NCBI GenBank assembly: GCA_030632085.1
Contig: DAOVJY010000001.1
Coordinates: forward strand, 142,289-206,288
Source of the DNA: Candidatus Omnitrophota bacterium
GTDB taxonomy: Bacteria; Omnitrophota; Gorgyraeia; JAGLLT01
Direction of reading: 5' to 3'
DNA: 64,000 nt
Part shown: positions 7,727-40,286 of the stretch, one piece after another
Layout: every line of letters begins with the position of its first letter
Numbering within the stretch: position 1 is the first letter of the stretch
The notes under the pieces: model-generated
What the model was told of the DNA's origin: nothing
Database searches by the model: none
The model's input: the letters and a program-made list of their open reading frames with translations, nothing else
Position numbers and translations under genes: made by a program

Positions 7727-7763
7727 GAACCTGCCTCCGCCTTTCCTTATAAATATGAAATTT

Positions 7764-7782
7764 AAAGGTGTCTGTCCCCTTT
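7764..7782 (+). repeat. Family-A hairpin AAAGGTGTCTGTCCCCTTT, 2 nt downstream of the RRM gene stop
   Basis: Same form at 8485-8503, 9261-9279, 10211-10229, 22043-22061, 22722-22740 and 24947-24965. Perfect-stem variant AAAGGGGTCTGTCCCCTT at 11758-11777 and 13171-13188. Divergent variants at 25388-25410 and 23566-23600. Confidence 0.9.
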
Positions 7783-7784
7783 AA

Positions 7785-8201
7785 TTAGCTGCGGCCTTTA
7801 CCTTCTCCTCCGCGGCTACCGCCGCCTCGTCCCCCGTGACCACCGCGACTATTGGTGTATCCGCCGCCGTATCCGCCGCCGCCGCCACCGTGTCCACCGC
7901 GGCTGCTGCCGCCATATCCACCGCTGCTACTATATCCGCTCCTACTGCCGCCGCGATCTTCGCGAGGGCGAGCTTCGTTCACCTTAAGCTCTCTTCCTTT
8001 TAACTCTTTGCCATTTAGGCCATCGATTGCCGCCTGGCCTTCTTCATTAGAGGGCATCTCCACAAAACCAAATCCTTTTGATTGACCATTATACTTGTCT
8101 TTAATGATGCTGACCGATTCAACCTCTCCGAATTCCGCTACAGCCTGCCGTAAGTCATCTTCAGTGACCTCATACGACAAATTTCCTACATAAATCTTCA
8201 T
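7785..8201 (-). CDS. RRM-domain RNA-binding protein with Gly-rich (RGG/GGYGG) tail
   Basis: IYVGNLSY (RNP2) and KGFGFVEM (RNP1) motifs are followed by a glycine/arginine-rich tail. This resembles cyanobacterial Rbp and cold-shock glycine-rich proteins. Confidence 0.85.
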   Translation of the reverse strand: MKIYVGNLSYEVTEDDLRQAVAEFGEVESVSIIKDKYNGQSKGFGFVEMPSNEEGQAAIDGLNGKELKGRELKVNEARPREDRGGSRSGYSSSGGYGGSSRGGHGGGGGGYGGGYTNSRGGHGGRGGGSRGGEGKGRS

Positions 8202-8296
8202 CTTACTCTCCTTTTGTAATAAATTATAGATTATTACACTACCTAGCGCTTAATCTACAATTTTCTTTCTTTAAGGAACTTTTATATTACACATAG

Positions 8297-8325
8297 ATTA
8301 TACATAAAACACATTAAATAATCAA
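8297..8325 (-). promoter_or_regulatory. Promoter TTGATT-17-TATAAT for the RRM gene 7785..8201
   Basis: Reverse complement reads caagcTTGATTatttaatgtgttttatgTATAAT, followed by an AAAGTTCCTTAAAG leader. Confidence 0.65.
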
Positions 8326-8484
8326 GCTTGGACACTTGGTTCTATGTCTTCCGCCTCGAAGATGATACAACCGATATTCTACCACTTCCGAGGTAATATA
8401 TACACGGTTTATTAAGATAATTGAAGTGAGTCAGAAAATTAGCATGCGACCAAAGGGAGTGCTAAGCAAAGTGAATATAAAATT

Positions 8485-8503
8485 AAAGGTGTCTGTCCCC
8501 TTT
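8485..8503 (+). repeat. Family-A hairpin copy
   Basis: 13 nt from the stop of gene 8517..9035. Confidence 0.9.
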
Positions 8504-8516
8504 AAAAATTAGAACT

Positions 8517-9035
8517 TTATTCCTTACTCACTCCAGTAATTTTAAGTTTAAGTAAATATTGCCTAATGTTTGCCGTTATATCAGGAATAACTATATCTGT
8601 ATATAGGATGTTATCTTGATATGATTCACTAATGATAACTTGATATTGCTTTCCAAACAACTTTTCGATTAGTACAATTAGCTCTCCTTTAACCAAATTT
8701 TCTATTTTTTTTTGCTCATCCATATTGCTGGAAGAAAAGGTTTCAGTAAAATCCATGGGATTAAATTCACCCGTTTCTTGCATCTCTAATGCTTTGCGCA
8801 TCATAGAGTCCTCTAATTCTTTATAGGTTTGATAGCTGTCTTTAAGCTCCTTGTTTTCCGGTTTAGAAAAAACCAGTTCTAATAATAAAGGTTCAACTTC
8901 TCTAAATTGTATTTTAGCAACACTGATTGAGGTTTTTTCGGCAAAACAAAAATTTTGAACACAGAGGATTAATAAAATTACAAGTACAATTTTTTTACTC
9001 ATTTTTCTCCTTTTTTCATTTTCTTTATCTAACAA
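8517..9035 (-). CDS. Secreted hypothetical protein
   Basis: A signal peptide is present (MSKKIVLVILLILCVQNFCFA). There is no family match. The likely start is the internal Met. Confidence 0.45.
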   Translation of the reverse strand: MLDKENEKRRKMSKKIVLVILLILCVQNFCFAEKTSISVAKIQFREVEPLLLELVFSKPENKELKDSYQTYKELEDSMMRKALEMQETGEFNPMDFTETFSSSNMDEQKKIENLVKGELIVLIEKLFGKQYQVIISESYQDNILYTDIVIPDITANIRQYLLKLKITGVSKE

Positions 9036-9079
9036 TTAATATACGAACTTCATTTTTTAAGGAATCTTATATTGCATTT

Positions 9080-9109
9080 ATTATAACATAAAGCATACTA
9101 AATACTCAA
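9080..9109 (-). promoter_or_regulatory. Promoter TTGAGT-18-TATAAT plus conserved leader for gene 8517..9035
   Basis: The reverse-complement leader AGATTCCTTAAAAAATGAAGTTCGTATATTAATTGTTAGATAAAG aligns with the leader at 22160-22227. Confidence 0.65.
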
Positions 9110-9260
9110 GCTTAGTGCTTCTATGTCTTTCGCCGTAAAATTCATTTATTGTTCGAGGTTTCGCCTCGAACACTATAAGATTAAAGCACGCATTACCAAA
9201 AGAAGAGCATATTGTTACACCTACGAGGTGTAATATATTTAATATCATATTTGTCAAATA

Positions 9261-9279
9261 AAAGGTGTCTGTCCCCTTT
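9261..9279 (+). repeat. Family-A hairpin copy
   Basis: 36 nt from the relE-like stop. Confidence 0.9.
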
Positions 9280-9315
9280 TATCCATTGCTATAAGCTCTT
9301 GCTATCAATATTAAC

Positions 9316-9762
9316 CTAAGGATATTTATCTTTAATCCATTTTTGAATCTTGGGGTCATTCGGGTTATGTGAAACATAGCCCTTTTTAACGAATTTCTTA
9401 AACTCTTCATAGGGATCGTTTTTGCTGCCGGACTTACGTATATGGCCTTCATCATTCAAATATAAATAAATTATAATCAAAGGGTTGCTGGAAAAACAGA
9501 AAATAATGCGATAACGCTGTAATCCGCTCTTATAACGCCTGTATTTTTTCAGATCTCTCTTAAGGCGATATTCAGGAAGATTCGGATCTTGGGGGATGAT
9601 ATTTTGATCGGCATTGCGGATACGCGCGGCAAGTTTTACAATCTCATGCTGTTTATAATCTTTATTTGATAATTTTGCTTTTAAAGCTTTGACTTGCTCT
9701 TTTAAACCTGAAACGCGAAGATAATAGTGATGATGATATTTCAAAACATATTTATTCACCAT
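9316..9762 (-). CDS. RelE/ParE-superfamily toxin
   Basis: YRLKRDL...YRIIFCF...IIIYLYLNDEGHIRK matches the RelE/ParE YRIIY...IGHRK pattern. It overlaps the upstream antitoxin gene by 11 nt. Confidence 0.6.
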   Translation of the reverse strand: MVNKYVLKYHHHYYLRVSGLKEQVKALKAKLSNKDYKQHEIVKLAARIRNADQNIIPQDPNLPEYRLKRDLKKYRRYKSGLQRYRIIFCFSSNPLIIIYLYLNDEGHIRKSGSKNDPYEEFKKFVKKGYVSHNPNDPKIQKWIKDKYP

Positions 9763-10051
9763 CTACTTCAATACCCTCAAGAAGCTTGTCCCACTCCTTA
9801 TCCCAGACTTCTTTAACATTTCTTAACTTATCTGGATGCTTTAAGGCATCTTTTATCAAAGCCTCTACAAATGAATGAAAAAGAGGGTCAGCTTCAATAG
9901 TATCAAGATTATTTTGGGCGCGGATACTAATCTTGTCCTGCGCACTTTCTATAATCACTTCTTTAGTACCGGTGTGTCTCACAAAATCCATAGGTATATC
10001 TACGGCATAACTGCCGCCATGCTTAAACAATTTTTTAACTGCAGTTCTCAT
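9752..10051 (-). CDS. AbrB/MazE-fold antitoxin partner of the RelE-like toxin
   Basis: 99 aa with a GGSYAVDIPMDFV swapped-hairpin-like N-terminus. The antitoxin-first operon layout is preceded by a TTGACA-17-TATACT promoter on the minus strand (about 10090-10125). Confidence 0.5.
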   Translation of the reverse strand: MRTAVKKLFKHGGSYAVDIPMDFVRHTGTKEVIIESAQDKISIRAQNNLDTIEADPLFHSFVEALIKDALKHPDKLRNVKEVWDKEWDKLLEGIEVDGE

Positions 10052-10210
10052 TTCTCATCTCCTATATTATCATTTCTATAAGTATTACTTTGATCTATTG
10101 CATAAGTATATACTAATGTGTATATATTGTCAAGATAATAGCATATATTCACCATCTTTATCTGAGAGGATTCTTCTGGTAAGATTTGATAGAATTTTCA
10201 TTAATAATTA

Positions 10211-10229
10211 AAAGGTGTCTGTCCCCTTT
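10211..10229 (+). repeat. Family-A hairpin copy
   Basis: 11 nt from the PEP-CTERM gene stop. Confidence 0.9.
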
Positions 10230-10240
10230 TAATTAAAAAC

Positions 10241-11239
10241 CTATTCTTTTAACTTTTTCCTCAATCCAAAAACTCCAAACAACCCCGCGCCTAAGAGTAA
10301 AATGGTCGAGGGTTCAGGGACAGCATAAACGTCTATCCTGTTTATAAAATAATCGCTTTCTTCCATTAACATATCCAAATCATTTATATATCGAGGAAGA
10401 AAAGTATCATACGTATACCAACTGGTCATTGGAGGCACGGCAGATACCGCAGAATGAACACCAAATAGCGTCAACTCCCCGCCCCATAATACAAAGGTTG
10501 GACTGCTAGAATCTCCTCCCACGGCCCCGGCATTATCAGGATAGCCGGGATCTGGACCTAAACGATTGTAGTTTTCCTCGCTACGAAAAAGGGAAGAAGC
10601 ATATAATGTCTGTTCATAGGCATTAGCAGGGCAGTGATAACCAAAACTACCTATTTCATTATTGCGTCCTACCTGCGCGCCTTGGCCATAAAGATATATA
10701 TTACTTTCAACTTGCGCACCGAGAGAGGTTCCCCACCAGTTTACATCATAATAAGGAGAACTTGGATCATCGGTATCCAGAATAGAATAGTGGGAAATCT
10801 TGTCAGCCTCAGACACAGTTTCACTAAGCCAACCAAGGGCAAGATCACAGGGATGAGAACCGAATTCATTAACATTGTCAATAACGCGGGAAGAATATTT
10901 ATTAACTGTATAAGATTTCAGTTGCCCTTCTCTGTTTATGAAGTTAATTGTGTTTCCAGTGGGCACTTTCCAGTGATTGGCGCAAACAAAATGTTGCGGC
11001 GATACCATTGTCACGCTGCGCGATGACATGCCCATGTCCCACCCTACACCCGACCAGTCATATTGTGAAGCAAAAAAATCAGGGTTGTTTACAGGATTAC
11101 CGGCATATGTTCCCGGATTAAACCTGTCATGCCGAGCGGGATTATACCCGTTTATTTGCAGGGCTTGAGCGTTTGCGGAATAACCAATACCCAGAAATAG
11201 TAAGAAAATCGCTGTCCATTTAGGTAAATTCATATACAT
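10241..11239 (-). CDS. PEP-CTERM sorting-signal secreted protein
   Basis: An N-terminal signal peptide is present. The C-terminus VPEPSTILLLGAGLFGVFGLRKKLKE is a VPEP motif followed by a TM helix and a basic tail. Confidence 0.75.
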   Translation of the reverse strand: MYMNLPKWTAIFLLFLGIGYSANAQALQINGYNPARHDRFNPGTYAGNPVNNPDFFASQYDWSGVGWDMGMSSRSVTMVSPQHFVCANHWKVPTGNTINFINREGQLKSYTVNKYSSRVIDNVNEFGSHPCDLALGWLSETVSEADKISHYSILDTDDPSSPYYDVNWWGTSLGAQVESNIYLYGQGAQVGRNNEIGSFGYHCPANAYEQTLYASSLFRSEENYNRLGPDPGYPDNAGAVGGDSSSPTFVLWGGELTLFGVHSAVSAVPPMTSWYTYDTFLPRYINDLDMLMEESDYFINRIDVYAVPEPSTILLLGAGLFGVFGLRKKLKE

Positions 11240-11426
11240 AACTTTCTCCAGTATTAAAAAAACACAAAGAAGTAAACAAAACTATATCAATTATAACAGA
11301 AAGATACAGGTTATCAAGTGGAGAAATTTTTCTTATTTAGGGAATATATTGCTGTATGCTATATAAGCTATTGAAGAAATTTAGGAAATTAGTAGCGTGA
11401 TTGAATGTGTCAATTAAGGGGTACTT

Positions 11427-11448
11427 AAGGGAGGTGACCCCTTTTTAA
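11427..11448 (+). repeat. Family-B hairpin AAGGGAGGTGACCCCTTTTTAA
   Basis: 17 nt from the RRM2 stop. Family-B copies at 13139-13160, 24396-24415 and 25136-25158 read AAGGGAGTTGACCCCTTTTT. Confidence 0.85.
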
Positions 11449-11465
11449 TTTCCTTTTTAATTTTG

Positions 11466-11714
11466 CTATGCCTTTTTGTCTTCAGCTTTTTTAACACGGA
11501 TTTTATTGCTGGCAACTTTCTTATTGTTCAAGCTTTTTATCGCAAATTTGGCTTCTTCTGGTTTCAGCATTTCAACAAAACCAAAACCCTTGGATCCACC
11601 GGTGGATTTATCTAACACCAAATCACAAGATTGTACGGCGCCATATTCTTCAAAGAGAACTTTTAATTCTTCTTCGGTAGTACTACGAGCAAGATTAAGA
11701 ATTATTAATTTCAT
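11466..11714 (-). CDS. RRM-domain RNA-binding protein (short, no Gly tail)
   Basis: LIILNLARS (RNP2) and KGFGFVEM (RNP1) motifs are present. It is a paralog of the gene at 7785..8201. Confidence 0.8.
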   Translation of the reverse strand: MKLIILNLARSTTEEELKVLFEEYGAVQSCDLVLDKSTGGSKGFGFVEMLKPEEAKFAIKSLNNKKVASNKIRVKKAEDKKA

Positions 11715-11757
11715 AAGTTAATACCCCTTTAAGTATCTAGTGATTCCACAGTATCGT

Positions 11758-11777
11758 AAAAAGGGGTCTGTCCCCTT
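11758..11777 (+). repeat. Family-A hairpin, perfect-stem variant
   Basis: It lies between the stop of 11834..12148 and the RRM2 start. Confidence 0.85.
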
Positions 11778-11833
11778 ATTCGAGTGGAAACCCTTCATTA
11801 TTGATTTGAGTTTTAACAGTTACTATTATGGTG

Positions 11834-12148
11834 TCAATATTCATTTGCTTCAGTATATGCTGCGTTTATGCCCTCTTTATAATATTGAACGATTTCACTA
11901 TTCAAATCTGCCTTAGTTTGAGTTGTCAAAGCACAATGTAAATCTGACCATATAGTATAAAGATATCCGGCAGATATTCTTAAATTTGACCACCCTTCAT
12001 TGTAATATCCTTTGTCAATATAAGAACTATTTTGAAAGTATTTCTTCCTGAAACTTGCTAATTTTCGGTTCCAACTATGAGACCATTCCAACCAGTCTTT
12101 TTCGTACATTACAAAATTATTTTCTTTGGTACTGTACTTATGAATCAA
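11834..12148 (-). CDS. Hypothetical protein (W/Y-rich), TTG start
   Basis: ORF-track ORF. Manual extension (my base indexing was not exact) suggests the frame stays open about 230 nt further upstream without an ATG. Confidence 0.35.
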   Translation of the reverse strand: MIHKYSTKENNFVMYEKDWLEWSHSWNRKLASFRKKYFQNSSYIDKGYYNEGWSNLRISAGYLYTIWSDLHCALTTQTKADLNSEIVQYYKEGINAAYTEANEY

Positions 12149-12339
12149 ATCATTATAAAAAAATTCTAGTTCATTAATTGCAACAAAAAGTTCCTTTTTC
12201 TCTGGGTCATGTTTTTTAATGTTTTCTTCTAGATTTTTAACGTAGTTTTTACTGGGAAAGATAAAAGTATTGGAATCTGCTTCTATTGTATTAAACTGGT
12301 AATTTCTGAAATCAATTTGTTTAGTATAAGAATCTATTT

Positions 12340-12999
12340 TTATATTTTCTCCATATTTTCCAATTTTTTCATAGATGTTTTTTCCTCATTTGTCATTTTG
12401 TAATTTTTAATCACAAATTTTTTGTCAAAATACCATTGACTACCAGTGTACAAATGTAGTTGATATATACCTTGAGGAAGAAATTTATTATCACGGGTTC
12501 GCATTTCAATAAAACCTTTTAATCGACCAGCTTCTACTTTAATTTTATTAGTATCTGTTGCTATATATTTATTGGTTGGTTTCAAGTTAGCCTCTTGTAC
12601 ATTAATAAAAAACTCTAAACCATTTGGTAGATCTGTTTCAATAAGAAATTCTATTTTGTCAAAGCTTGTTTGCTCTACATTGACAAAATTTAACATAGTG
12701 AAAGGTTTTTTGCATTGTTTTTCTTGTTTTTTAACATTGTCTATTTTGTAATCAATTGTCTTTACTTTTTTTGTGGCTACAGAAGGTGGTAAATTGGCTG
12801 AATAAACAATAATACTTACAAAAGTAGTGACTATTGTAGATAAAAAGCAAACTTTAAAAACTCGTCCACGAGTCCGATGTTTCTTATTGCCCCACCACAA
12901 AACAAGTTTAGGACTTAGCATTCCTAAAATGAATGCGAAAAATAAAAAAATATATACATGCACCGTATAGTTGGCAATTGTATATCTTATATCTTCCAT
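12340..12999 (-). CDS. Membrane-anchored hypothetical protein
   Basis: Two N-terminal TM helices precede a soluble domain. No family was recognised. Confidence 0.4.
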   Translation of the reverse strand: MEDIRYTIANYTVHVYIFLFFAFILGMLSPKLVLWWGNKKHRTRGRVFKVCFLSTIVTTFVSIIVYSANLPPSVATKKVKTIDYKIDNVKKQEKQCKKPFTMLNFVNVEQTSFDKIEFLIETDLPNGLEFFINVQEANLKPTNKYIATDTNKIKVEAGRLKGFIEMRTRDNKFLPQGIYQLHLYTGSQWYFDKKFVIKNYKMTNEEKTSMKKLENMEKI

Positions 13000-13138
13000 T
13001 TTAACCCTCCATTTACTATGTCATAAAAACGAAATCACCAGTCGAAAAGCGCAGCTTTTTAGTCAGTTGGATTAGTTTGTTAGGATTTTTCTGTTTCTTC
13101 TACTTTTAATATTTCTTCGTTTTTTTTAGGGATCTATT

Positions 13139-13188
13139 AAGGGAGTTGACCCCTTTTTAATTTTAGAATTAAAGGGGTCTGTCCCCTT
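13139..13188 (+). repeat. Tandem family-B plus family-A hairpins followed by (CCTTAT)n
   Basis: B at 13139-13160, A at 13171-13188, then CGTCCCCTTATCCTTATCCTTATCC. Confidence 0.85.
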
Positions 13189-13231
13189 ATCGTCCCCTTA
13201 TCCTTATCCTTATCCATTCTTATAATTACAC

Positions 13232-13699
13232 TTAGAAATTCGTCGTTTTACTTAATTTATTAATTAATTTTTCTGAATTTATTACTTTGAATCTTTGTCC
13301 CAATGTGTTTTCAAACCAAAAATTTACATGATCGGATTCATTTCCTTCCGGATCAATAATATGTAAATCTTCCAAATAGACAGAGGTTTCATATTTTTCA
13401 TGTTCACCCAATCTGACCCCTTTTCCCTCTTTACCTATATGCGTTCCACAGTAACCACCTTCGCTCAAATTTCCACCAAACATAGTCAAGATTACCGGTC
13501 TCCTACCGCAATTCACAATTTTAATAGCTATATGAGCACGATCATAACTAGAATTATAAGGGTAAAATTTAGCATGTGTTTTTAAATGGGCCCTGTCACG
13601 AAATCCAAAATAACCCGATATCGCTATGCTTGTAATAGAAATTATTAGTGCAGCTATTGAAACATAATCAGATATCTGCATATTTTTTTCTCCTAACAT
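13232..13699 (-). CDS. Hypothetical protein with N-terminal TM anchor
   Basis: 155 aa. The RBS leader TTAGGAGAAAAAAATATG is shared with other cassette genes. Confidence 0.4.
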   Translation of the reverse strand: MLGEKNMQISDYVSIAALIISITSIAISGYFGFRDRAHLKTHAKFYPYNSSYDRAHIAIKIVNCGRRPVILTMFGGNLSEGGYCGTHIGKEGKGVRLGEHEKYETSVYLEDLHIIDPEGNESDHVNFWFENTLGQRFKVINSEKLINKLSKTTNF

Positions 13700-13844
13700 T
13701 CATGTATACCTGCCATTAGCCAAGCTTGATAGAACGCAGAAAAAGGGCAGGTGTAGTGCATTGTTAAATGTTTTTTAAATTTATTTGTTAATTGAAATGC
13801 TGAAAAATTAAAATCAGTTTTTTTCTTTTGAGGCACCCCTTCTT

Positions 13845-14315
13845 TTATCTCTTTTTACTAGGCTGAACTATCGTATTATAATCTTTTTCATCTATAGGAA
13901 TGATAGTCTTATTCTTAAATGCCATCCCAACATTGGGAGCAGATCTAACAAAATCCAAATTATCTCTTAAATTCTTTGTCCAAAAAACTGGAGGGTCCCA
14001 AATAGATTCAATCTTGAAGTCAATCTCAAATGGCCGATATTTATTATCACCTCTTGGCGCTCTTGTAGGTTCATGGGGTTCTCTTGTAATAATCGCCTCC
14101 CCAGAGAAATACTTCACTTTTTTGCTTTTATCGCTAATATAAAATAATATTTTATCTCCACTTCTTATCTTATTAATATGTGAATCAGTGCCAAGCTGCC
14201 AACTTTGATCTTTTTGTAGCTGTTTAAAACTACTTTCAGCATTATCAGCAATGTGTGGCAGAATCCAATATCTATTAGAATAGCCGTTCATAATCCACCT
14301 CCGCTTAATTTTCAT
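13845..14315 (-). CDS. Hypothetical protein, possibly PUA-like (EVE/ASCH-type) fold
   Basis: The RYWIL...W motif near the N-terminus is weakly similar. This is a low-confidence assignment. Confidence 0.3.
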   Translation of the reverse strand: MKIKRRWIMNGYSNRYWILPHIADNAESSFKQLQKDQSWQLGTDSHINKIRSGDKILFYISDKSKKVKYFSGEAIITREPHEPTRAPRGDNKYRPFEIDFKIESIWDPPVFWTKNLRDNLDFVRSAPNVGMAFKNKTIIPIDEKDYNTIVQPSKKR

Positions 14316-14364
14316 TATTTATCTAACGATTGAGCTCACCTGCCGCCGAACGAAGTGAGGGAAC

Positions 14365-14383
14365 AAAAACGCCGCGCGTTTTT
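14365..14383. terminator. Palindromic hairpin AAAAACGCCGCGCGTTTTT, a bidirectional terminator candidate
   Basis: Immediately 3' of the serine-protease gene. It is embedded in a CACCTGC...GCAGGTG outer inverted repeat. Confidence 0.5.
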
Positions 14384-14419
14384 GCGGTCAGGTGCAGCGT
14401 TTGGTTGAGCAAAACTTCT

Positions 14420-15313
14420 TTATTTTGTATGTGCCATATCTATTGTCTCCGCAATATAGAAAGCCGGAAGAATTGCTGCGAATTTTCCTCCAGTTGGATC
14501 ATTAAAAGTTCCATGCACTATTCCCACGCAATTAAAAGCCCCTTGTCCAGAAGACATAACCCCAATTTTTACACTTGAAAGTTTAAATACGGGAGCTCCA
14601 CTAAATCCAGCAACGCTTGGGTCATCCAAAATAAAGAATGAAGCTTCAGTATTATTATCAAATCTAGAATGTCTGAATAAAGCGCTAGCAGGGTGTGCTA
14701 CTTTCACTATTGGAGAGAATTTACCTTTGACACCCAATTCAAGAGGAAAACCAACTGTAGTCAAAAAGATATCTAAATTAGGAGCTGAATTCTCAATTGC
14801 AAGTTGGTCATATGAAACGGCACGTATTGCTGCTCTAAAATTCTCGGGAGGTGAAATCGGTAATACAGCAATATCAGCTTCATTATGCAATATCCATTTT
14901 GGTGCTTGCATACCAGCAAGTTCTGATAGATTGTAGGTAAGTGGTATACCATTAGCTCCATATACCGTTGCCTTAGAATCAAAAGGTATTCCATTGGAAA
15001 CATGACTTGCCGTTACAAGATACAAATTCGGCCCTTTGGACACAAAAAAACCTGACCCTGATGTAATTAAGTTTAGTGGCTCAGGATTTGTCTTGGTTTT
15101 TTTTATCCAGACTTCCACCTCTTCTCCATTAATTGTTGTCTTCTTTACTCCTTGATGTCCCTGAAGAAACACCACTGCAGGAAAAACATCGTGAGCGGTT
15201 TGAGACAAAACTTCCGTCGGGGCTGAAAGAAGACAGATTAGTATCAACATCATCCATAATGAATATCTTCCAACCATTTTAATCCTCCTGATCATCATAT
15301 TTGTGTCCAACAA
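14420..15313 (-). CDS. Secreted trypsin-like (S1/S1B-type) serine protease
   Basis: Signal peptide present. GSGFFV...LVTASHV contains the His motif and GFSGAPVF is the GxSGxP Ser motif. Confidence 0.7.
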   Translation of the reverse strand: MLDTNMMIRRIKMVGRYSLWMMLILICLLSAPTEVLSQTAHDVFPAVVFLQGHQGVKKTTINGEEVEVWIKKTKTNPEPLNLITSGSGFFVSKGPNLYLVTASHVSNGIPFDSKATVYGANGIPLTYNLSELAGMQAPKWILHNEADIAVLPISPPENFRAAIRAVSYDQLAIENSAPNLDIFLTTVGFPLELGVKGKFSPIVKVAHPASALFRHSRFDNNTEASFFILDDPSVAGFSGAPVFKLSSVKIGVMSSGQGAFNCVGIVHGTFNDPTGGKFAAILPAFYIAETIDMAHTK

Positions 15314-15461
15314 TTAATATATGGAATAGGTATTTTCTGGATATTTAATATCATACACATTTATATTACACCATCTGTTTAAATTTACAAGTTCATTTTT
15401 TTGCTTATATTCCGCATTTTATCCATAATATAAGGATATACGAAGTTCACAAATTAATCTA

Positions 15462-18741: not shown

Positions 18742-18759
18742 TTTTTTCTCCTGTTGATT

Positions 18760-20672: not shown

Positions 20673-20689
20673 CTTTTTCCTTATATTTA

Positions 20690-21097
20690 TTATAGAATGA
20701 TTTCTATAGCGTGATATGGACAGATGTCAACGCAGAGCCCGCAGGCAATGCATTTACTCTTATCAAAGGTAACGGTCATCTTCTCTCTATTGACGCTAAA
20801 CGCTTTGGTAGGACAGATTCCAACACATGCCGTGCAGTGAATGCACTTCTTCTTATCCCATTTAATATCACTGGTTAACGATTGAGTATTAGCACCTATC
20901 TCATGTAAATACTTAAGGCCTTTCTCAAGGTCTTCTTTTTTACCTGTAAGCTCAACCACTAAAAGGCCTTCTTCGTTAGGCATTACTCTGGCCTTCATGA
21001 TGTTGACTATCAGGTTATAATCCTTTACCAGGTGATATGTTATGGGTTTTTCAACTAATTGATGCGGAAAAGTTATAACTACTCTTTTCTTGACCAT
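20690..21097 (-). CDS. NIL-domain / 2x[4Fe-4S] ferredoxin-domain protein
   Basis: [12 protein letters not shown] and [12 protein letters not shown] clusters follow a NIL-like N-terminal domain. Confidence 0.65.
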
Positions 21098-21233
21098 ATT
21101 TTCTCCTTAAAATTACGAGTTTATTATACACAGATTAGGAATTATTGGCAAGCTTTTTTAGAGAAAATAGTTGGATTGCGGCTAGGGCGCCTGAGCACCG
21201 CGTACCACTTCGTAGGTGGAAATAGATTTTAGG

Positions 21234-21262
21234 TTGAATATTCAGCATATCTTATGTATAAT
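21234..21262 (+). promoter_or_regulatory. Near-consensus sigma70-type promoter TTGAAT-17-TATAAT (TG-extended), upstream of mntA/hepT
   Basis: TTGAATATTCAGCATATCTTATGTATAAT. The same module appears at 22132-22160 (plus) and as reverse-complement copies upstream of minus-strand genes. Confidence 0.7.
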
Positions 21263-21351
21263 ATATATAGTTTAAAAAAGCTTTAAAAGAAAGCTTAGTT
21301 ACTAATTGGCAGATGGAAAAAAGATAAAATTTCAGAAAGTGTTCTAATTAT

Positions 21352-21621
21352 ATGATTACTGAATCTGATAAAAAAACAATTGAGGAAATATCTAAGCGAT
21401 ATCACGTAAAGCGTGTGATGATATTTGGGTCAAGCTTATCTTCATCCGAGGAAAGCCGCGATATTGATATTGCCGTGGAAGGAATTCCTTCGAAGGATTT
21501 CTATCGTTATTATGGAGATCTTATATTCGCTCTGTCAAAACCAGTGGATATTGTTGACCTTTCAGGTACATCAAAATTTTCAAAACTAATTAGGCAGGAG
21601 GGTACATTCCTCTATGGCTGA
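21352..21621 (+). CDS. mntA: MntA-type minimal nucleotidyltransferase antitoxin (HepT/MntA type VII TA)
   Basis: GS...SRDIDIAV nucleotidyltransferase motif is present. It is followed by a HEPN gene with an 8-nt overlap. Confidence 0.75.
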
Positions 21622-22029
21622 TTATAAAATACGTATTGAAGCTGAATATGAATCTATTGAAAAAACTATTTCTTCTCTTCCCGAAATACCTTTATCGCAA
21701 CTTTCAGAGCTAGAACTTGCCGGAGTAGCAGCCTTGCTCCATAATTTTATAATGGTATCGAAAATGTTCTAAAACAGGTATTTCAGAAATCAGGGTTCCA
21801 AATACCTCAAGGGGCATCCTGGCATAGAGATTTACTTCTTGAAGCTGTAGATAAAAAGATTATTTCTACCTTGCTTATGGATAATTTAAAACGTTTTTTG
21901 GCTTTCCGGCATTTTTTTGGACACGCGTATGCTTTAGATCTTTTTCCAGAGAGAATGGAACCTCTCGTTTCAGATTCCTCGAATGTATTCAAACAGTTTA
22001 AATCTGAAGTAAATAAAGCAATAGACTAG
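21614..22029 (+). pseudogene. hepT: HepT (HEPN) toxin interrupted by a -1 frameshift in a T-tract (~21746-21749)
   Basis: Frame 1 gives [45 protein letters not shown] then a stop. Frame 2 continues [15 protein letters not shown]...[12 protein letters not shown] with the R-x4-HxY HEPN motif. Inserting one T into TTTT restores [13 protein letters not shown]. Confidence 0.65.
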
Positions 22030-22042
22030 CAAACTATAAATA

Positions 22043-22061
22043 AAAGGTGTCTGTCCCCTTT
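22043..22061 (+). repeat. Family-A hairpin copy, 13 nt after the plus-strand hepT stop
   Basis: Same plus-strand orientation as copies following minus-strand genes. Confidence 0.9.
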
Positions 22062-22131
22062 AAACCCTTTAAAAGAGTAAATCACCTTCATTTGGTATAT
22101 ATTCAGGCTTACTTAAATCAAACGCATAAGT

Positions 22132-22160
22132 TTGAATATTCAGCGTATTTTATGTATAAT
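22132..22160 (+). promoter_or_regulatory. Promoter TTGAAT-17-TATAAT plus conserved leader to the GTG at 22228
   Basis: The leader ...AAAGTTCCTTAAAAAACGAAGTTTGTATATTTATTGTTAGGAGAAAAAAG is shared with the minus-strand copies. Confidence 0.7.
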
Positions 22161-22227
22161 ATATGTATACCGTTAAAGTTCCTTAAAAAACGAAGTTTGT
22201 ATATTTATTGTTAGGAGAAAAAAGAGA

Positions 22228-22494
22228 GTGACTAAAAAACTACAGATGGTATTAAGCAGATTGTTATTGGTTTGCGCTTTGTTAGTTTTGGCAGTTGTCT
22301 TCCATATGGTTCTTGTGGTTCCCAAAGCTATGTCGCAGGCAAGTGACATGGCAAGACAGCTTTCGGCTCCCGAGAAGTTCGTCTACAACCTTAGCGGCAT
22401 ATGCATCACATACTGGATTCTTATCATCCCGATTCTTGTTTTCATCGTAATTGGAGCAATAATCTGGGTGATGGTTTCGAGAATTGAAACATAG
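22228..22494 (+). CDS. Small membrane protein (GTG start)
   Basis: 88 aa with two TM helices. It lies about 65 nt downstream of a consensus promoter plus conserved leader. Confidence 0.45.
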   Translation: MTKKLQMVLSRLLLVCALLVLAVVFHMVLVVPKAMSQASDMARQLSAPEKFVYNLSGICITYWILIIPILVFIVIGAIIWVMVSRIET

Positions 22495-22721
22495 AAGAAT
22501 TCCGCTAACAACGCGCCGCAACAGATTCCGAAATGACGGAACCGCTGAGTTCAAACGCAAAATAATAAATAATATAGAAACGTACTATACGCTTAAAATC
22601 ATAGTATATATTTTTTATGTAGAATTATTGCGAGCTTTTTTAGATAAAACGTTAGATTGCGGCTAGATATCCTCCGCACCCTGTACCATTTCGTAGGTGT
22701 TATTAGAATGACAAATAAATA

Positions 22722-22740
22722 AAAGGTGTCTGTCCCCTTT
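22722..22740 (+). repeat. Family-A hairpin copy
   Basis: 72 nt from the stop of methyltransferase 22813..23517. Confidence 0.9.
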
Positions 22741-22812
22741 TCCCTTTTTCTTTTTATTGGAAAATATTTATTTTTAAGAAAAAAGGTTCTGGGTATTTTT
22801 TACCTTCATTTA

Positions 22813-23517
22813 TTATTGGAGGCGAACCCTCAACATTTCGTTTCCGCCTTTTTGAAATTCGTAAGGTACTTTCTTTATATCGACCACAAAACCGCCTTTT
22901 TCAAGTCTATCTACGACTGTCTCGAGATGTCTTGATTTTTTGGCTCCCAACTCCAACAGGGGAAATATCCTTACCTCAGATGCAACCCGACAAAGTTCTT
23001 CTATTGACTGAATATGAAAATCTTCTGAAAGGTGCTCGCTGTAGAGAAAGAGAAAGTGAGAACATAAGGCAATGTCAAATTCTCGAGCTTTGAATGGAAG
23101 TGTGGGCAAACTCGCGTCTACATAACGACCTTCCTTTAAACCTGCCACATAATCGGATAAGAAGTTGTTCATAGCAGCCATACGAACTTTGCCGAGTTCC
23201 TTAACTGATGAAATATGTCTCCACACAAACTCATTTTTGTTCTTTCTGGTCTGTTCCATGATCTCTTCATATGTTTCATCCATTCGATTTCTTATTTCAT
23301 CTGCACTGAAACGGTAAATCGGATCAACAGAAACTACATGGCCTCCACGATGTTTCATCATGCAATTAAAGCTTGCGGGACCGTCGCAACATCCCAGAAA
23401 CCGCTTCCTAAGCTCTTTTTTCGCTAAGGCAAACATTGCCAAATATTCGTTGAAGGATCGTCCCCAAGGAACTACTTTTTCCAAAGTGAAAGCCATCTTG
23501 CTTTTCCTATTTGCCAT
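22813..23517 (-). CDS. Probable class I SAM-dependent methyltransferase
   Basis: FLGCCDGPASF motif-I-like sequence and a distal FDIALCSHFLFL motif are present. Confidence 0.5.
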   Translation of the reverse strand: MANRKSKMAFTLEKVVPWGRSFNEYLAMFALAKKELRKRFLGCCDGPASFNCMMKHRGGHVVSVDPIYRFSADEIRNRMDETYEEIMEQTRKNKNEFVWRHISSVKELGKVRMAAMNNFLSDYVAGLKEGRYVDASLPTLPFKAREFDIALCSHFLFLYSEHLSEDFHIQSIEELCRVASEVRIFPLLELGAKKSRHLETVVDRLEKGGFVVDIKKVPYEFQKGGNEMLRVRLQ

Positions 23518-23584
23518 ATAACGGTTGAAATCACCTGCTTGAAAAATCGCACAGCGATTATTTCAAGTCAGGTGCATTGATTTG

Positions 23585-24139
23585 TTAGATGTCCCCTTTT
23601 AATTTTGTTTTATACAATAGACAACAATCCCATTCATCCAAAGAATAAACAGACATGCAGTCCAAGATAAATTCTTCCTTTGGAAAAGAACTGCCAAGAA
23701 GTTCTTCCATTGTTTTTTCAGAACCATCTGTGAATCTTGCAATTGAACAATGCGGAGTATAATGATGTGGGTTGTTATTAAATCTGAGATTTGTATCGAT
23801 TATCTTTTTCTGAAGCAATGAAAATGGTTTTAAAACTCTTGGCTCCAAATAGCACATTTTAGTATTTGGGAAATGAGTAATTCTTGAAAAAGCAGTTTTA
23901 ATAGGTGAAAAATTCTGTGCAATTTGTTCTAAGGTTTCGAAAACAAATGATGGTTTTTGATCATTTTTAAGTATTCCAACTCCAGATGACCCAATAATTG
24001 TTATTTCAACAGGAATTACTGTGCGTTGTTTCTCATATTGCATGCGAAGTGCCATAACCTTACTAGATACTGGTTCAGGTATATCTAAAACAACATATGT
24101 ATCGTGTTCAAATTTTTCCATATCTTTTGCACCTAACAA
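23585..24139 (-). CDS. Hypothetical protein (possible 2H-phosphoesterase-like fold, weak)
   Basis: HYTPHCSIARF is weakly H-x-T/S-x-like. The likely start is MEKFEH at about 24121. A conserved promoter/leader lies upstream. Confidence 0.3.
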   Translation of the reverse strand: MLGAKDMEKFEHDTYVVLDIPEPVSSKVMALRMQYEKQRTVIPVEITIIGSSGVGILKNDQKPSFVFETLEQIAQNFSPIKTAFSRITHFPNTKMCYLEPRVLKPFSLLQKKIIDTNLRFNNNPHHYTPHCSIARFTDGSEKTMEELLGSSFPKEEFILDCMSVYSLDEWDCCLLYKTKLKGDI

Positions 24140-24187
24140 TTAATATACGAACTTCGTTTTTTAAGGAATTTTAATATCTATGTCAAT

Positions 24188-24216
24188 ATTATACGCTGGT
24201 AGTGAGCAAGTTTCAA
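24188..24216 (-). promoter_or_regulatory. Promoter TTGAAA-17-TATAAT plus conserved leader for gene 23585..24139
   Basis: Reverse complement reads cagcTTGAAActtgctcactaccagcgTATAAT, then ...AATTCCTTAAAAAACGAAGTTCGTATATTAATTGTTAGGTGCAAAAGATATG. Confidence 0.7.
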
Positions 24217-24324
24217 GCTGAAATCCTATATTCTATTTCGTAATTTGTCTATGATATGCAGAGGATGTTGTTCGAGGTTAAACCTCGAACATACCTTGAA
24301 CATGAGTTTAGGATAAAATATTGT

Positions 24325-24341
24325 ATCACCGCGGCGGTGAT
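24325..24341. terminator. Perfect GC-rich palindrome ATCACCGCGGCGGTGAT
   Basis: Located between genes 24449..24847 and 23585..24139. Confidence 0.5.
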
Positions 24342-24395
24342 ATTAAGGGAATTAGGTTTGAGTTTGGGTTTGGGTAGTTGGAAGGTCTAAACTAA

Positions 24396-24415
24396 AAAGG
24401 GAGTTGACCCCTTTT
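24396..24415 (+). repeat. Family-B hairpin plus pyrimidine tract
   Basis: Followed by CCTTTTTACCCCTTTTCCTTTTTCTTTTCC. It is 33 nt from the stop of 24449..24847. Confidence 0.85.
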
Positions 24416-24448
24416 CCTTTTTACCCCTTTTCCTTTTTCTTTTCCTTT

Positions 24449-24847
24449 TTATGAATTTTCGACTTTCTTTTTGTTGGGTAAAAATCCAGAAATAACCCAG
24501 AGGATACCCAAGTACGAGATTACAGGAATAATTCCAAGCCCAAAAAACTCTGTCCAGCTTTGGCTCTTGCCCCGATAACTGCGATATGGTTCCAAGGCAA
24601 CAAAGAAACCCGCTACCCATAAAACTGAAATGAGCACAACGAGACGAATAGCGCCTTTGTTTCCTCTAATAATATGACCGCCAAGATAACTTAGGCCAAA
24701 TGACCCAATGGCTATGCCAGCTGTAATGGCAGAAATAAAACCCCAATCTTCAGATGAAGGTGGAGATCCAATCGCACTCACAATACCCACATAAATAATC
24801 CAGACAACTAAACAAGTGCCACAAATCCAAAAACTAATCTTTATCAT
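24449..24847 (-). CDS. Hypothetical integral membrane protein
   Basis: 132 aa with four TM helices. Confidence 0.45.
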   Translation of the reverse strand: MIKISFWICGTCLVVWIIYVGIVSAIGSPPSSEDWGFISAITAGIAIGSFGLSYLGGHIIRGNKGAIRLVVLISVLWVAGFFVALEPYRSYRGKSQSWTEFFGLGIIPVISYLGILWVISGFLPNKKKVENS

Positions 24848-24946
24848 TAAATATATCCTTTCACTTTCTCATACCAACTAATATAAGTATTTTTTAAACA
24901 ACCCCCTCATGCCGCTACCAGATGCCCTGGCTCATGTTCTCTCATA

Positions 24947-24965
24947 AAAGGTGTCTGTCCCCTTT
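24947..24965 (+). repeat. Family-A hairpin copy adjacent to oppF-3'-end remnant 1
   Basis: Directly 3' (plus coordinates) of the remnant at 24907-24943. Confidence 0.85.
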
Positions 24966-25135
24966 AAACCCCCTTTAAACCGTAATTTACCTATGATATG
25001 CAGAGTACGTTGTCCGAGGCTTAGCCTCGGACATAAAATAGCCTCGGAGGTGGTATGTGGGGATTAGGTTTGAGTTTGGATATTTGGTATGTTCTATGTA
25101 TAATGTATATCGGTGGGATTAAAGGTCTAAACTAA

Positions 25136-25158
25136 AAAGGGAGTTGACCCCTTTTTAA
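25136..25158 (+). repeat. Family-B hairpin copy
   Basis: Preceded by AGGTCTAAACTAAAA, identical to the sequence before the copy at 24396. Confidence 0.85.
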
Positions 25159-25387
25159 TAGCTTTTCATTAAAAGCATTTTGTTCGTTTGCAAGAAAATC
25201 ATGCAATTTAGTCATAGTTTATAGATAATTTTCATATAGCAACTTCTATTTATATTTATTTACAAGCAATTATAACATCATACGTAAGTATTATACACTA
25301 GCAGTAAATTAGTTTCAACCCCAAAAAATCACACCTTCGCCAGATGCTCTATCTCATGCTCTCGAAAAAAAGAAAAAAAGTATGATC

Positions 25388-25410
25388 AAAAGGTGTCTGT
25401 CCTCTTTTTT
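25388..25410 (+). repeat. Family-A variant (…GTCCTCTTTTTT), 50 nt from the dam stop
   Basis: AAAAGGTGTCTGTCCTCTTTTTT. Confidence 0.75.
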
Positions 25411-25460
25411 CACTACTACTCTTCCTATTCTTGGCATATATAGCTATTGCTATTTAATGT

Positions 25461-40285: not shown

Positions 40286-40286
40286 A

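Follow-up and report, generated by a model that had tools for sequence, protein, structure and literature searches.

Fourteen short hairpins in the 64-kb stretch of DNA analyzed here (the window) appear to be lineage-specific, dispersed, imperfect palindromes of a REP-like kind, which would act as weak, orientation-tolerant terminators or insulators and would turn over at the DNA level, and which do not seem to be cassette sites. On the sequence evidence, we consider this reading somewhat likelier to be right than wrong. A motif scan of the window placed all 14 hairpins on the + strand, one fewer than the 15 that the initial annotation had counted. Family A (10 copies of 19 nt) follows the pattern AAAGG[T/G]GTCTGTCC[C/T]CTT[T/A], and family B (4 copies of 20 nt) the pattern AAGGGAG[G/T]TGACCCCTTTT[T/C]. 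Read in the sense of the adjacent gene, family A consists of an A-tract, GGGG, the loop ACAGA, C(A/C)CC, and a U-tract, and family B of GGGG-UCAAC-UCCC. Shuffled sequence gave 0.00-0.01 chance matches to the two motifs, and the expectation for the rest of the window is ≈0. Eight copies are identical at 19 of 19 positions in flanks that are unrelated, so that conservation is limited to ≈19-20 nt. The copies and the one rearranged segment are as follows.

7746..7784, no strand assigned, 39-nt segment with the first hairpin, flipped against its flanks when the window is compared to L376/L377
7764..7782, + strand, family A, T variant (AAAGGTGTCTGTCCCCTTT), 2 nt 3' of RRM gene 7785-8201(-) and 38 nt 5' of the start of 7313-7726(-)
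8485..8503, + strand, family A, T variant, 13 nt 3' of ORF 8517-9035(-)
9261..9279, + strand, family A, T variant, 36 nt 3' of YhaV toxin gene 9316-9762(-)
10211..10229, + strand, family A, T variant, 11 nt 3' of PEP-CTERM gene 10241-11239(-)
11427..11446, + strand, family B, 19 nt 3' of a second RRM gene 11466-11714(-)
11760..11778, + strand, family A, perfect GGGG/CCCC variant, 55 nt 3' of ORF 11834-12148(-)
13139..13189, + strand, tandem of B (13139-13158) and A (13171-13189), 42-73 nt 3' of ORF 13232-13699(-)
22043..22061, + strand, family A, T variant, 13 nt 3' of a + strand HepT fragment ending at 22029
22722..22740, + strand, family A, T variant, at a convergent junction, 72 nt 3' of 22813-23517(-) and 227 nt 3' of membrane ORF 22228-22494(+)
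24397..24416, + strand, family B, 32 nt 3' of ORF 24449-24847(-)
24947..24965, + strand, family A, T variant, no credible ORF on either side
25137..25156, + strand, family B, ≈130 nt downstream (- strand) of a promoter-like site at 25318-25290
25389..25407, + strand, family A, mutated CCTC arm, 53 nt 3' of PD-Lambda-5_B-like methyltransferase gene 25461-26369(-)

Half-copies adjoin some of the hairpins, and a decayed second hairpin (D10) lies beside the copy at 22722..22740.

The hairpins span 7764-13189 and 22043-25407, which is narrower than the 7.7-15.3 kb and 21.1-25.5 kb first proposed. Their absence elsewhere was borne out: the remaining ≈46 kb of the window, genes and backbone alike, holds no additional or degenerate copy with up to 5 mismatches allowed. 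The motif is also missing from all of the ≈8 housekeeping operon ends in the window and is therefore not a general terminator of the Omnitrophota host. Both spans fall in islands.

7213..15453, no strand assigned, hypervariable island V1, from truA to a conserved 159-aa gene
21163..27777, no strand assigned, hypervariable island V2, from the opp operon to NIL-Fer4-leuC

Synteny with related Omnitrophota revealed a common backbone (opp operon, V2, NIL-Fer4-leuCDB-IVP-asd-truA, V1, 159aa-65aa-methyltransferase) in which V1 and V2 hold different genes or none. The V1 site is empty (94 nt) in L367 and carries 5 kb of other genes in L368 and L371. These islands are rich in defence and toxin-antitoxin genes; V2 of the window contains an MNT/HepT toxin-antitoxin pair and a PD-Lambda-5-like pair. 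Because both stretches are hypervariable around the conserved NIL-Fer4-leuCDB-asd-truA block, the description of the region as accessory is correct.

Confinement to islands that differ between related genomes, together with small, unrelated genes pointing mostly in one direction, recalls the attC-like system raised by the initial annotation, in which gene plus hairpin would form a mobile unit exchanged by a site-specific recombinase. An insertion in L368 ends 25-40 nt past a hairpin, and the copy at 10211..10229, whose stem is lengthened by flanking A/T pairs, is only ≈10 nt away from a point where homology with L376 breaks off. However, indel breakpoints between relatives are separated from hairpins by 10 to ≈190 nt or lie remote from any, and neither end of a 1.8-kb indel relative to L376 (window 8332-10143) is at a hairpin. 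Most island genes of the relatives lack the hairpin, as do PrlF-YhaV homologues of three other Omnitrophota lineages; some hairpins lack a gene, one has been flipped in place in a relative, and in other genomes housekeeping genes precede the hairpin too. No integrase, transposase, or other recombinase was found among the ORFs of the window or in ≈90 kb of the relatives' loci; the 19-20-nt hairpin is far shorter than attC and lacks R/L boxes; and the island genes have their own predicted sigma-70-like promoters. We regard cassette exchange as largely refuted already and as very improbable.

A stop codon precedes the hairpin by 2-73 nt in 11 of the 14 copies. The placement 2-72 nt 3' of a stop had been asserted for every copy, which does not hold for those at 24947 and 25137, neither of which is 3' of any credible ORF; a 613-nt stretch that lacks a credible ORF holds 3 copies. 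The hairpin at 25137..25156 may mark the end of a small RNA or of a 27-aa ORF. About 10-11 of the ≈17 transcription units in the islands carry a hairpin, and none follows ORFs 7313-7726, 12340-12999, 13845-14315, 14420-15313, and 23585-24139, so that "nearly every gene" was too strong. Each hairpin that follows a stop codon is in turn followed, at 70-170 nt, by a sigma-70-like site that ranks among the best of the region, and then by the next ORF.

8325-8297, sigma-70-like site after a hairpin
9109-9080, sigma-70-like site after a hairpin
10133-10105, sigma-70-like site after a hairpin
11317-11290, sigma-70-like site after a hairpin
24216-24188, sigma-70-like site after a hairpin
25318-25290, sigma-70-like site after a hairpin

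This order of stop codon, hairpin, promoter-like site, and next ORF argues for termination or insulation, as do the tract-flanked structure, the stability of the tandem, and the widespread terminator-like apex described below. Every copy is flanked by A- and T-tracts, with T in the gene sense richer than A in 6 of 7 copies, and the G.U wobble in family B arises on the gene-sense strand only. The A+B tandem noted earlier at 13139-13189 is real; its two members can pair into a single long hairpin (-30 kcal/mol; z -3.7) and are immediately followed by GTCCCCTTATCC half-copies at 13190-13215.

Stem strength is not conserved across variants, as had been supposed. Predicted folding gave -6.3 kcal/mol (z about -1.7) for the T variant (GGTG/CCCC), which contains a mismatch or bulge, compared to -11.4 kcal/mol for the GGGG copy. 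T-variant hairpins combine 3 G:C pairs and a bulge with U-tracts of just 3-5 nt broken by A, and a generic terminator scan of the window did not pick up family A. As modeled, these hairpins would be weak intrinsic terminators. The destabilizing T is nevertheless kept in 8 of the 10 family A copies and in relatives, which is not expected from selection for stability alone. Its conservation would fit a word, GGGGACAGAC(A/C)CC, that is read by a protein, either as a binding or uptake signal or as the site recognized by an RNA-binding protein, for example the two RRM proteins whose genes lie beside copies, with near-palindromy secondary. DUS/USS words in the terminators of Neisseria and Pasteurellaceae provide a model, and GCCGTCTGAA is present in 55% of Neisseria terminators (PMC1852404). 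The exact word, non-pairing base included, recurs in distant phyla and sometimes forms both arms of a perfect long inverted repeat (L060, L007). By contrast, uptake signals occur about once per kb and the backbone and genes here hold none; the word has no known candidate receptor and is used in either orientation to genes; and copies decay in relatives. A protein-read word is distinctly improbable on this balance.

Turnover at the DNA level is suggested by comparison with relatives. In blastn alignments, L376 3814-3850 and window 7746-7784 run in the same direction, and the flanks (L376 3270-5962) match in reverse. In L376/L377, the closest relative, the ortholog of the hairpin behind the RRM gene is thus inverted in situ, within the 39-nt segment. 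This ortholog is decayed in L378, other decayed copies are present in L367 and L368, and the strain variant L377 carries an extra half-copy. The same master sequence is maintained in relatives at 88-94% LeuC identity. From identical copies in unrelated flanks, inversion in situ, and half or decayed copies, we infer a turnover like that of REP-type elements, in which members of the family are copied, flip, and decay. DNA-level propagation had originally been argued from orientation, which is a weak ground. The fixed orientation is true of the window; the - strand carries nearly all genes of the 64 kb, so that a fixed DNA orientation is barely separable from a fixed orientation relative to transcription, and the uniform strand is mostly a consequence of near-uniform gene direction. 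The plus-strand loop is indeed kept in the copy at 22043, behind the HepT fragment, which is the only clear case of a + strand gene.

A rival account is that the hairpins are REP/RAYT-type or IS200-like single-stranded DNA elements spread by an HUH (Y1) transposase encoded elsewhere, which would recognize the unpaired T/A on one DNA strand, with the strand bias reflecting replication coupling and termination incidental. Identical copies in unrelated flanks, the conserved stem mismatch, and the occupation of a single DNA strand by 14 of 14 copies over 18 kb, even by the one behind a + strand gene, agree with this mechanism. GC skew is uniformly negative, which puts the entire window on one replichore arm. 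Moreover, the master sequence persists in relatives, inverted doublets of the word are seen in other taxa, and REPIN populations are known to retain a master sequence over long times (PMC8049555; PMC3116915). On the other side, the ortholog flipped on the same backbone in the nearest relative speaks against a strict coupling to the replication strand. The hairpin has no GTAG/CGTC tag beside it, the window and ≈90 kb of the relatives' loci contain no Y1 or other transposase, and copies are restricted to two islands instead of spreading through extragenic space, with a single doublet in the window. We consider active spread by such an enzyme unlikely.

In other genomes, the hairpin points either way relative to genes (54:24, about 2:1), has symmetric A/T tracts around it, and is also found behind housekeeping genes, such as that of H+-PPase. 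In many phyla, some distant, the exact apex, mismatch included, caps longer palindromes that resemble terminators and follow genes, and the lower stems of these palindromes covary (57-82% paired compared to 36-47% in shuffles). Metagenome and viral contigs of 26-77% GC hold the general form AAAGGGG-N5-CCCCTTT in abundance, often directly after stop codons, and its loops are strongly non-random. The hairpin is therefore a member of a very widespread class (A-tract, GGGG, pentaloop, CCCC, T-tract) at gene 3' ends in many phyla. Such convergent recurrence across phyla and GC contents, and the non-random loops, could mean that the copies are independent intrinsic terminators, inherited with their genes or evolved in place, kept identical by a strong constraint on a minimal A-tract/G4/loop/C4/T-tract design. 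Yet 8 copies within 18 kb share loop and mismatch exactly, the hairpin is missing from PrlF-YhaV homologues of three other Omnitrophota lineages and from PEP-CTERM homologues elsewhere, inversion in situ and half-copies occur, and some copies have no adjacent gene. Independent origin is improbable.

We favor dispersed REP-like palindromes that, on the transcript, would most likely form small bidirectional intrinsic terminators or 3'-end-stabilizing insulators. Placed where small transcription units with promoters of their own end, they would prevent read-through between neighboring accessory genes; between the RRM gene and its 137-aa partner, the hairpin may serve as an intercistronic attenuator. 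Against this reading stand the weak T-variant stems, the conserved T, the housekeeping ends that lack the motif, and the 3 copies that lack a credible ORF.

Among known systems, attC/CALIN arrays likewise combine small, unrelated, mostly co-oriented genes in a region that varies between relatives with an imperfect palindrome containing an unpaired base after each gene. Unlike the hairpins here, attC sites are 57-141 nt long, have R''/L''/L'/R' boxes, and are cut by IntI, and integron cassettes are promoterless with breakpoints inside attC. In Neisseriaceae and Pasteurellaceae, a conserved 10-13-nt DUS/USS word forms hairpins after genes, which makes these terminators identical in sequence (PMC1852404); these signals occur genome-wide, genes included, and their stems usually consist of two inverted copies of the word, whereas here the word is the entire hairpin and is confined to islands. 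Bidirectional Rho-independent terminators resemble our elements in their short G+C stem between an A-tract and a T-tract, their distance of a few to tens of nt from the preceding stop codon, their function in either orientation, and their occurrence in tandem or pairs. The hairpins of the window differ from them by having a very short stem of 3-4 G:C pairs with a conserved mismatch and short, interrupted U-tracts, by being identical in sequence and not just similar in structure, and by being absent from housekeeping operon ends. Relative to the REP/BIME/REPIN elements of Proteobacteria, which are associated with RAYT, they lack the GTAG/CGTC tag and a detectable RAYT, are conserved over 19-20 nt only, cluster in two islands of an Omnitrophota host, and have an apex that is shared across phyla, unlike the lineage-specific REP sequences. 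Both groups consist of short, imperfect palindromes outside genes, of which many identical copies lie in unrelated flanks; both have a master sequence that persists among relatives, occasional inverted doublets, and a position at gene 3' ends and between cistrons. REPs at gene ends stabilize upstream mRNA and can terminate transcription.

Pattern searches of the window recovered 14 copies of two related 19-20-nt hairpins, families A and B, all on the + strand, and shuffled sequence gave 0.00-0.01 matches. The initial annotation had counted fifteen; because a scan of both strands of the 64 kb with five mismatches allowed revealed no further or degenerate copies, the total is 14. All copies are intergenic, none lies within an ORF, and all 14 fall inside one of two hypervariable islands, V1 and V2:

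7764, 8485, 9261, 10211, 11760, 13171, 22043, 22722, 24947 and 25389 (+): family A hairpins, by start (n=10)
11427, 13139, 24397 and 25137 (+): family B hairpins, by start (n=4)
7213-15453: island V1
21163-27777: island V2, a hypervariable hotspot on the other flank of the NIL-Fer4-leuCDB-IVP-asd-truA block

The conserved core spans about 19-20 nt, and the sequence around the hairpins is unrelated between copies. In family A, eight copies are identical over 19 nt (AAAGGTGTCTGTCCCCTTT), GGGG replaces GGTG in two copies, and one has a CCTC arm. Stem strength, originally described as equal across variants, differs between them. The GGTG/CCCC stem of the T variants has a mismatch or bulge and consists of three G:C pairs, the bulge and A:U pairs; it folds at -6.3 to -12 kcal/mol depending on its flanks (z -1.7 to -4.9), remaining at -6.3 kcal/mol (z about -1.7) unless lengthened by flanking A:T pairs, compared to -11.4 kcal/mol for the GGGG copy and -9.4 to -11.7 kcal/mol for family B. 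Family B contains a G.U wobble in gene-sense RNA only (A.C on the opposite strand), a small hint, and effectively one observation, as to which strand is transcribed. The tandem of families A and B noted earlier is present at 13139-13189; it can also fold into a single hairpin of -30 kcal/mol, like the inverted pairs in other taxa. Half-copies follow hairpins at 13189, 22061 and 24965. Alignment neither favours nor disfavours family B as an inverted family A, since both are near-palindromes and direct (75%) and inverted (~74%) alignments are about equal. A tRNA or CRISPR origin was rejected, there being no tRNAs and an irregular spacing between copies (189-8872 nt), as was a HIP1-type octamer (GCGATCGC, count 0). 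Rfam 15 gave no window match at gathering scores and, permissively, nothing relevant in 7-14 kb (E<=5) or 15 loci of other taxa (E<=1), and a full-text literature search with the motif and related 13-mers returned unrelated primer and oligo matches only.

The window, assigned to Omnitrophota by its LeuC homologues, has 36% G+C, a negative GC skew throughout, and nearly all genes on the - strand. The genes adjoining the hairpins are small and varied:

two RRM proteins
a PrlF/YhaV toxin-antitoxin pair
a PEP-CTERM protein
an EVE-domain protein
a trypsin-like protein
21352-22029 (+): an MNT (Polbeta nucleotidyltransferase)/HepT toxin-antitoxin pair, with HepT split into two ORFs (21614-21772 and 21871-22029), probably by a frameshift
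a 2'-5' RNA-ligase-like protein
25461-27597 (-): a two-gene PD-Lambda-5-like defence pair, with a methyltransferase matching PD-Lambda-5_B (E 3e-110) and an upstream 414-aa ORF matching PD-Lambda-5_A weakly (1e-9)
several ORFs without matches

The remaining window consists of housekeeping sequence (GH3, DEAD helicase, truA-asd-leuBDC, opp, gap-pgk-tpi-secG, fmt, priA and polysaccharide genes). As the initial annotation had stated, this sequence lacks the hairpin: there were 0 copies in the ~46 kb beyond the islands with five mismatches allowed, and none at the ends of about eight housekeeping operons in the window. The accompanying proposal that nearly every island gene is followed by a hairpin just 3' of its stop codon was borne out in part. 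A stop codon lies 2-73 nt before the hairpin in 11 of the 14 copies, but copies 24947 and 25137 fall within 613 nt that contain no credible ORF, and several island genes have no hairpin. This stretch (24848-25460) contains a strong promoter-like site (25318-25290, -) and three hairpins; a small RNA or micro-ORF may be encoded there, with the family B copy at 25137-25156 as its end. Six of the region's best sigma-70-like matches lie 70-170 nt downstream, in gene sense, of a hairpin and before the next ORF, a placement that lets the islands be read as a series of putative promoter-ORF-hairpin units.

Accessory genes have other expression signals in common besides the hairpins. Repeated promoter/5'-leader modules (TATGTATAAT... 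AAAGTTCCTTAAAGAA-like) precede unrelated accessory genes, including an RRM gene:

9018-9069 and 24122-24173: promoter/5'-leader repeat
21218-21268, 22116-22166 and 25060-25110: promoter/5'-leader repeat
8250-8350: promoter/5'-leader repeat

A second small hairpin family, GTTCGAGG-N5-CCTCGAAC, occurs at 9149-9172, 24268-24291 and 25010-25033, with compensatory changes in one copy (GTCCGAGG...CCTCGGAC); it forms part of a module of ~175 nt that is repeated at 24239-24416 and 24981-25156 and has family B at its end. Low-complexity intergenic repeats (caagatgcaag..., ctaaatcctaaa...) are found at a convergent junction (40020-40286) and after leuD (18742-18903), and relatives carry similar 'ggactcaggacataggact' repeats.

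We compared the islands with loci fetched from relatives. The window and loci L367 and L368/L369/L371 (88% LeuC identity) have a backbone in common, which runs opp operon, V2, NIL-Fer4-leuC-leuD-leuB-IVP-asd-truA, V1, 159aa-65aa-methyltransferase, and the gene content of V1 and V2 is entirely different in these relatives; V1 amounts to an empty 94 nt in L367 and to 5 kb of other genes in L368. Since every hairpin of the window is in V1 or V2, the designation of this region as accessory is right. Island genes of relatives include REase-ARP, FRG-domain and DsrE/TrmO/CPT genes. The same relatives contain a single perfect hairpin (L368, 20421) together with decayed copies such as AAAGTGACAAACACCTTTTT, which usually adjoin an intact terminator of another kind, CCACCTACGCGGTGG with a T-run after it. 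This third element, a canonical terminator that we designate D10, is intact 3' of three genes in the relatives, just after decayed family A copies (L367/L368, 6700-8620), whereas in the window (21165-21226 and 22646-22707) D10 is decayed and family A is intact.

If the hairpins bounded exchangeable cassettes, as had been suggested, homology would break at the motif. Instead, the breakpoints against L367, L368 and the closer relative L376 lie outside the hairpins, 10-190 nt from them or unrelated to them: hairpin 10211 has a breakpoint ~10 nt away, in L368 the inserted DNA begins at the stop codon of truA and extends 25-40 nt past a hairpin, and a 1.8-kb block of the window missing from L376 (8332-10143) has neither end at a hairpin. 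An independently assembled 3.3-kb Logan contig (SRR13892601; L126) covers window 18765-22065 with 100% identity and stops exactly in hairpin 22043, which is consistent with an assembly break at a repeat and carries no information on variation. No such hairpin accompanies the PrlF-YhaV homologues (68-70% identity) of three further Omnitrophota lineages in 3.4-5.5 kb of surrounding sequence; therefore, the hairpin does not travel with the YhaV gene. When the island proteins were all compared by tblastn with each of the fetched loci, a distant homologue emerged for the PEP-CTERM protein alone, and that homologue was hairpin-free.

The orientation of the hairpin was also informative in close relatives. 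L376/L377 (a bin with 94% LeuC identity) and L378 keep the order RRM-137aa-159aa-65aa-methyltransferase, and in L376/L377 the hairpin that follows the RRM stop codon at the orthologous place is flipped: window 7746-7784, a segment of 39 nt, aligns with L376 in the same direction, and its surroundings align in reverse. L378 has a decayed copy at the orthologous place after RRM, and in L377, which is a strain variant of L376, an additional half-copy (CTGTCCCCTTT) lies next to the hairpin. Thus, the orientation of the hairpin is not fixed in this lineage, and the element is a hotspot for small DNA rearrangements. The earlier claim of one fixed DNA orientation holds for the 14 copies of the window and fails for this flipped orthologue. 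That claim had relied on one clear case, copy 22043 located 3' of the + strand HepT fragment, and one convergent junction (22722). All 12 of 12 gene-adjacent copies have the loop ACAGA in gene sense, which is somewhat unusual given a 2:1 background (0.69^12, about 0.01). This uniformity could reflect recent copying from one master and, with the flipped orthologue in particular, is no proof of DNA-strand specificity.

A scan of one genome per species for exact AAGG[G/T]GTCTGTCCCCTT returned at least 119 loci. Among the matches listed, which came from Bacteroidales, Clostridia, Olsenella, Collinsella, Methylophilaceae, Bacillus, Acidobacteriota, Planctomycetota and Omnitrophota, nearly all sit at the apex of a longer palindrome of terminator-like form, and the lower stems vary with the taxon. 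In 83 non-redundant contexts from these matches, positions 2-7 outside the 17-mer are paired in 57-82% of cases compared to 36-47% in shuffles, with all pair types represented. Further copies, tandem arrays or inverted pairs occur at many of the listed loci, the A- and T-tracts around the hairpin are symmetric, and the sense-strand loop relative to the nearest gene is ACAGA in 54 and UCUGU in 24 of the matches listed. The hairpin also lies 3' of housekeeping genes elsewhere, for example after H+-PPase in L082. Viral contigs contained only six motif matches, about chance level, one of them a Collinsella-type hairpin. In 10 of 11 inverted pairs (L007, L014, L042, L056, L060, L086, L088, L097 and L101 versus L019), the left loop is ACAGA and the right loop TCTGT, so that each converging transcript would meet ACAGA first; such pairs can form one long stem as well. 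A Coriobacteriia MAG (L065) has twenty copies of GGGGACAGACCC clustered in 8 kb at 35-50-nt spacing, many preceded by TGACAAYNR, an array much denser than that of the window.

Loop specificity was controlled with the pattern AAAGGGG-N5-CCCCTTT in viral and metagenome contigs. Viral contigs yielded at least 129 hairpins with at least 68 loops, none ACAGA among the matches listed, and metagenome contigs (26-77% G+C; L247-L366) yielded at least 141 hairpins with at least 49 loops, many with a stop codon directly at the start of the hairpin. Loops in the listed metagenome matches are far from random: ACWGT 28, TCWGA 22, CGAAG 9, TACGA 7, ACAGG 7 and ACAGA 3. CGAAG corresponds to the stable GAA triloop already described, and ACWGT and TCWGA loops produce perfect odd palindromes, GGGGWC-N-GWCCCC. 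The window element thus belongs to a class of minimal A-tract/G4/pentaloop/C4/T-tract hairpins that is pan-bacterial and located at gene ends. As a remote possibility, the strong bias of the class toward perfect GGGG-WC-N-GW-CCCC palindromes would come from a general, so far undescribed process that shapes terminator DNA.

For the GGGG form, convergence within a small sequence space can account for its presence in many phyla. Convergence is a less comfortable account of the mismatch-bearing GGTG form. Multiple copies of that form occur in Omnitrophota, in Collinsella (loop TCTGT or CCTGT) and in MAGs labelled as Firestonebacteria and Aminicenantes; a proteobacterial MAG of 61% G+C also has multiple copies, which there make up the arms of a perfect long inverted repeat. 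Single-mismatch stem variants in unselected samples were too few to show whether GGTG is special.

We conclude that the repeat family is real, non-random and located in a truly accessory region, and that its nature is most likely ordinary, that of a terminator/REP-like hairpin. The hairpins end small, separately promoted units and tolerate both orientations; identical copies have unrelated flanks; in situ inversion, half-copies and decay are seen; and in the window the hairpins are limited to two hypervariable islands, with no recombinase in the scanned ORFs of the window or of relatives' loci and with breakpoints outside the hairpins. As RNA, the hairpin would terminate or insulate transcripts or protect their 3' ends, and we infer that the family spreads by some DNA-level copying in the fashion of REPs. 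Of the initial proposal, dynamics at the DNA level are supported by inversion and half-copies. A purely thermodynamic terminator role sits poorly with stems as weak as those of the T variants, with U-tracts that are short and interrupted, and with retention of the destabilising T. It is a long shot that the hairpin is instead a 'word', GG(T/G)G-YCTGT-CCCC with a conserved unpaired base, read strand-specifically by a factor that copies or flips it and places it by preference in recently acquired DNA; the factor would be a conserved or mobile HUH-type enzyme or another hairpin-binding protein. Such a word would account for the exact mismatch-bearing apex in multiple copies in Omnitrophota, Aminicenantes, Collinsella and Proteobacteria, for the destabilising T kept in 8 of 10 copies, and for the marking of hypervariable islands only.

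If the terminator/REP-like reading holds, accessory genes of a poorly studied phylum are organized as promoter-ORF-hairpin units in hypervariable hotspots, where small palindromic terminators turn over through copying and in situ inversion. This would be useful for annotating Omnitrophota and for telling such regions from integrons, and it is not surprising. Of greater weight are two loose ends worth a genome-wide look, the mismatch-bearing apex common to several phyla and the non-random loop usage of the pan-bacterial class, which hint either at a constraint that minimal terminators have in common or at an undescribed factor or mutational process that acts on them.

Among known systems, integron attC sites are 57-141 nt long with R''-L''...L'-R' boxes (GTTRRRY core), and their promoterless cassettes, whose exchange breaks fall within the site, form an array beside attI and the tyrosine recombinase IntI. 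The suggested likeness fails in every testable defining feature: the conserved unit here is 19-20 nt, no GTTRRRY/RYYYAAC pair flanks the hairpins, island genes have strong promoter-like sites in front of them, breakpoints are not inside the hairpins, and no integrase, transposase or other recombinase domain was found in any scanned ORF of the 64 kb or of syntenic loci. MITEs are 50-500-nt units with terminal inverted repeats and target-site duplications; our conserved unit measures 19-20 nt, or 39 nt if the inverted segment is taken, with no direct repeats flanking the copies. DNA-uptake words (DUS/USS) occur at high density genome-wide and also inside genes, a distribution at odds with the confinement of our hairpins to intergenic island sequence. 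Uptake signals of Neisseria and Pasteurellaceae give a precedent for terminators built from a conserved word (PMC1852404).

The window hairpins are closer to REPs in being short imperfect extragenic palindromes in many near-identical copies with unrelated flanks (14 in 64 kb). REP/REPIN-RAYT systems have GTAG or CGTC at the hairpin foot, inverted doublets that replicate, and RAYT, a Y1 HUH transposase usually flanked by REPs. The feet of our hairpins have A/T runs only and no GTAG/CGTC tetranucleotide; no RAYT gene was found among window ORFs >=90 aa, the scanned smaller island ORFs or relatives' loci; and doublets, though found in other taxa, are not the unit in the window, where one pair (13139-13189, A with B) stands beside 12 single copies. 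Without the tag, a detectable RAYT and doublet organization, the hairpins are therefore REP-like in a descriptive sense only. REPs, too, are located between cistrons; they stabilise the mRNA upstream of them and retain a master sequence (PMC3116915, PMC8049555, PMC3479197). The gene-sense U-tract of our hairpins comprises 3-5 U followed by A/U-rich sequence, and a generic terminator scan (>=5 T in 8) detected family B on the + strand and missed family A. Intrinsic terminators are G+C-rich stem-loops, typically of 5-14 bp and about -8 to -20 kcal/mol, with a U-tract directly after the stem. Like them, the window hairpins lie at the end of transcription units shortly after the stop codon (11/14, 2-73 nt), and in behaviour they resemble bidirectional intrinsic terminators.
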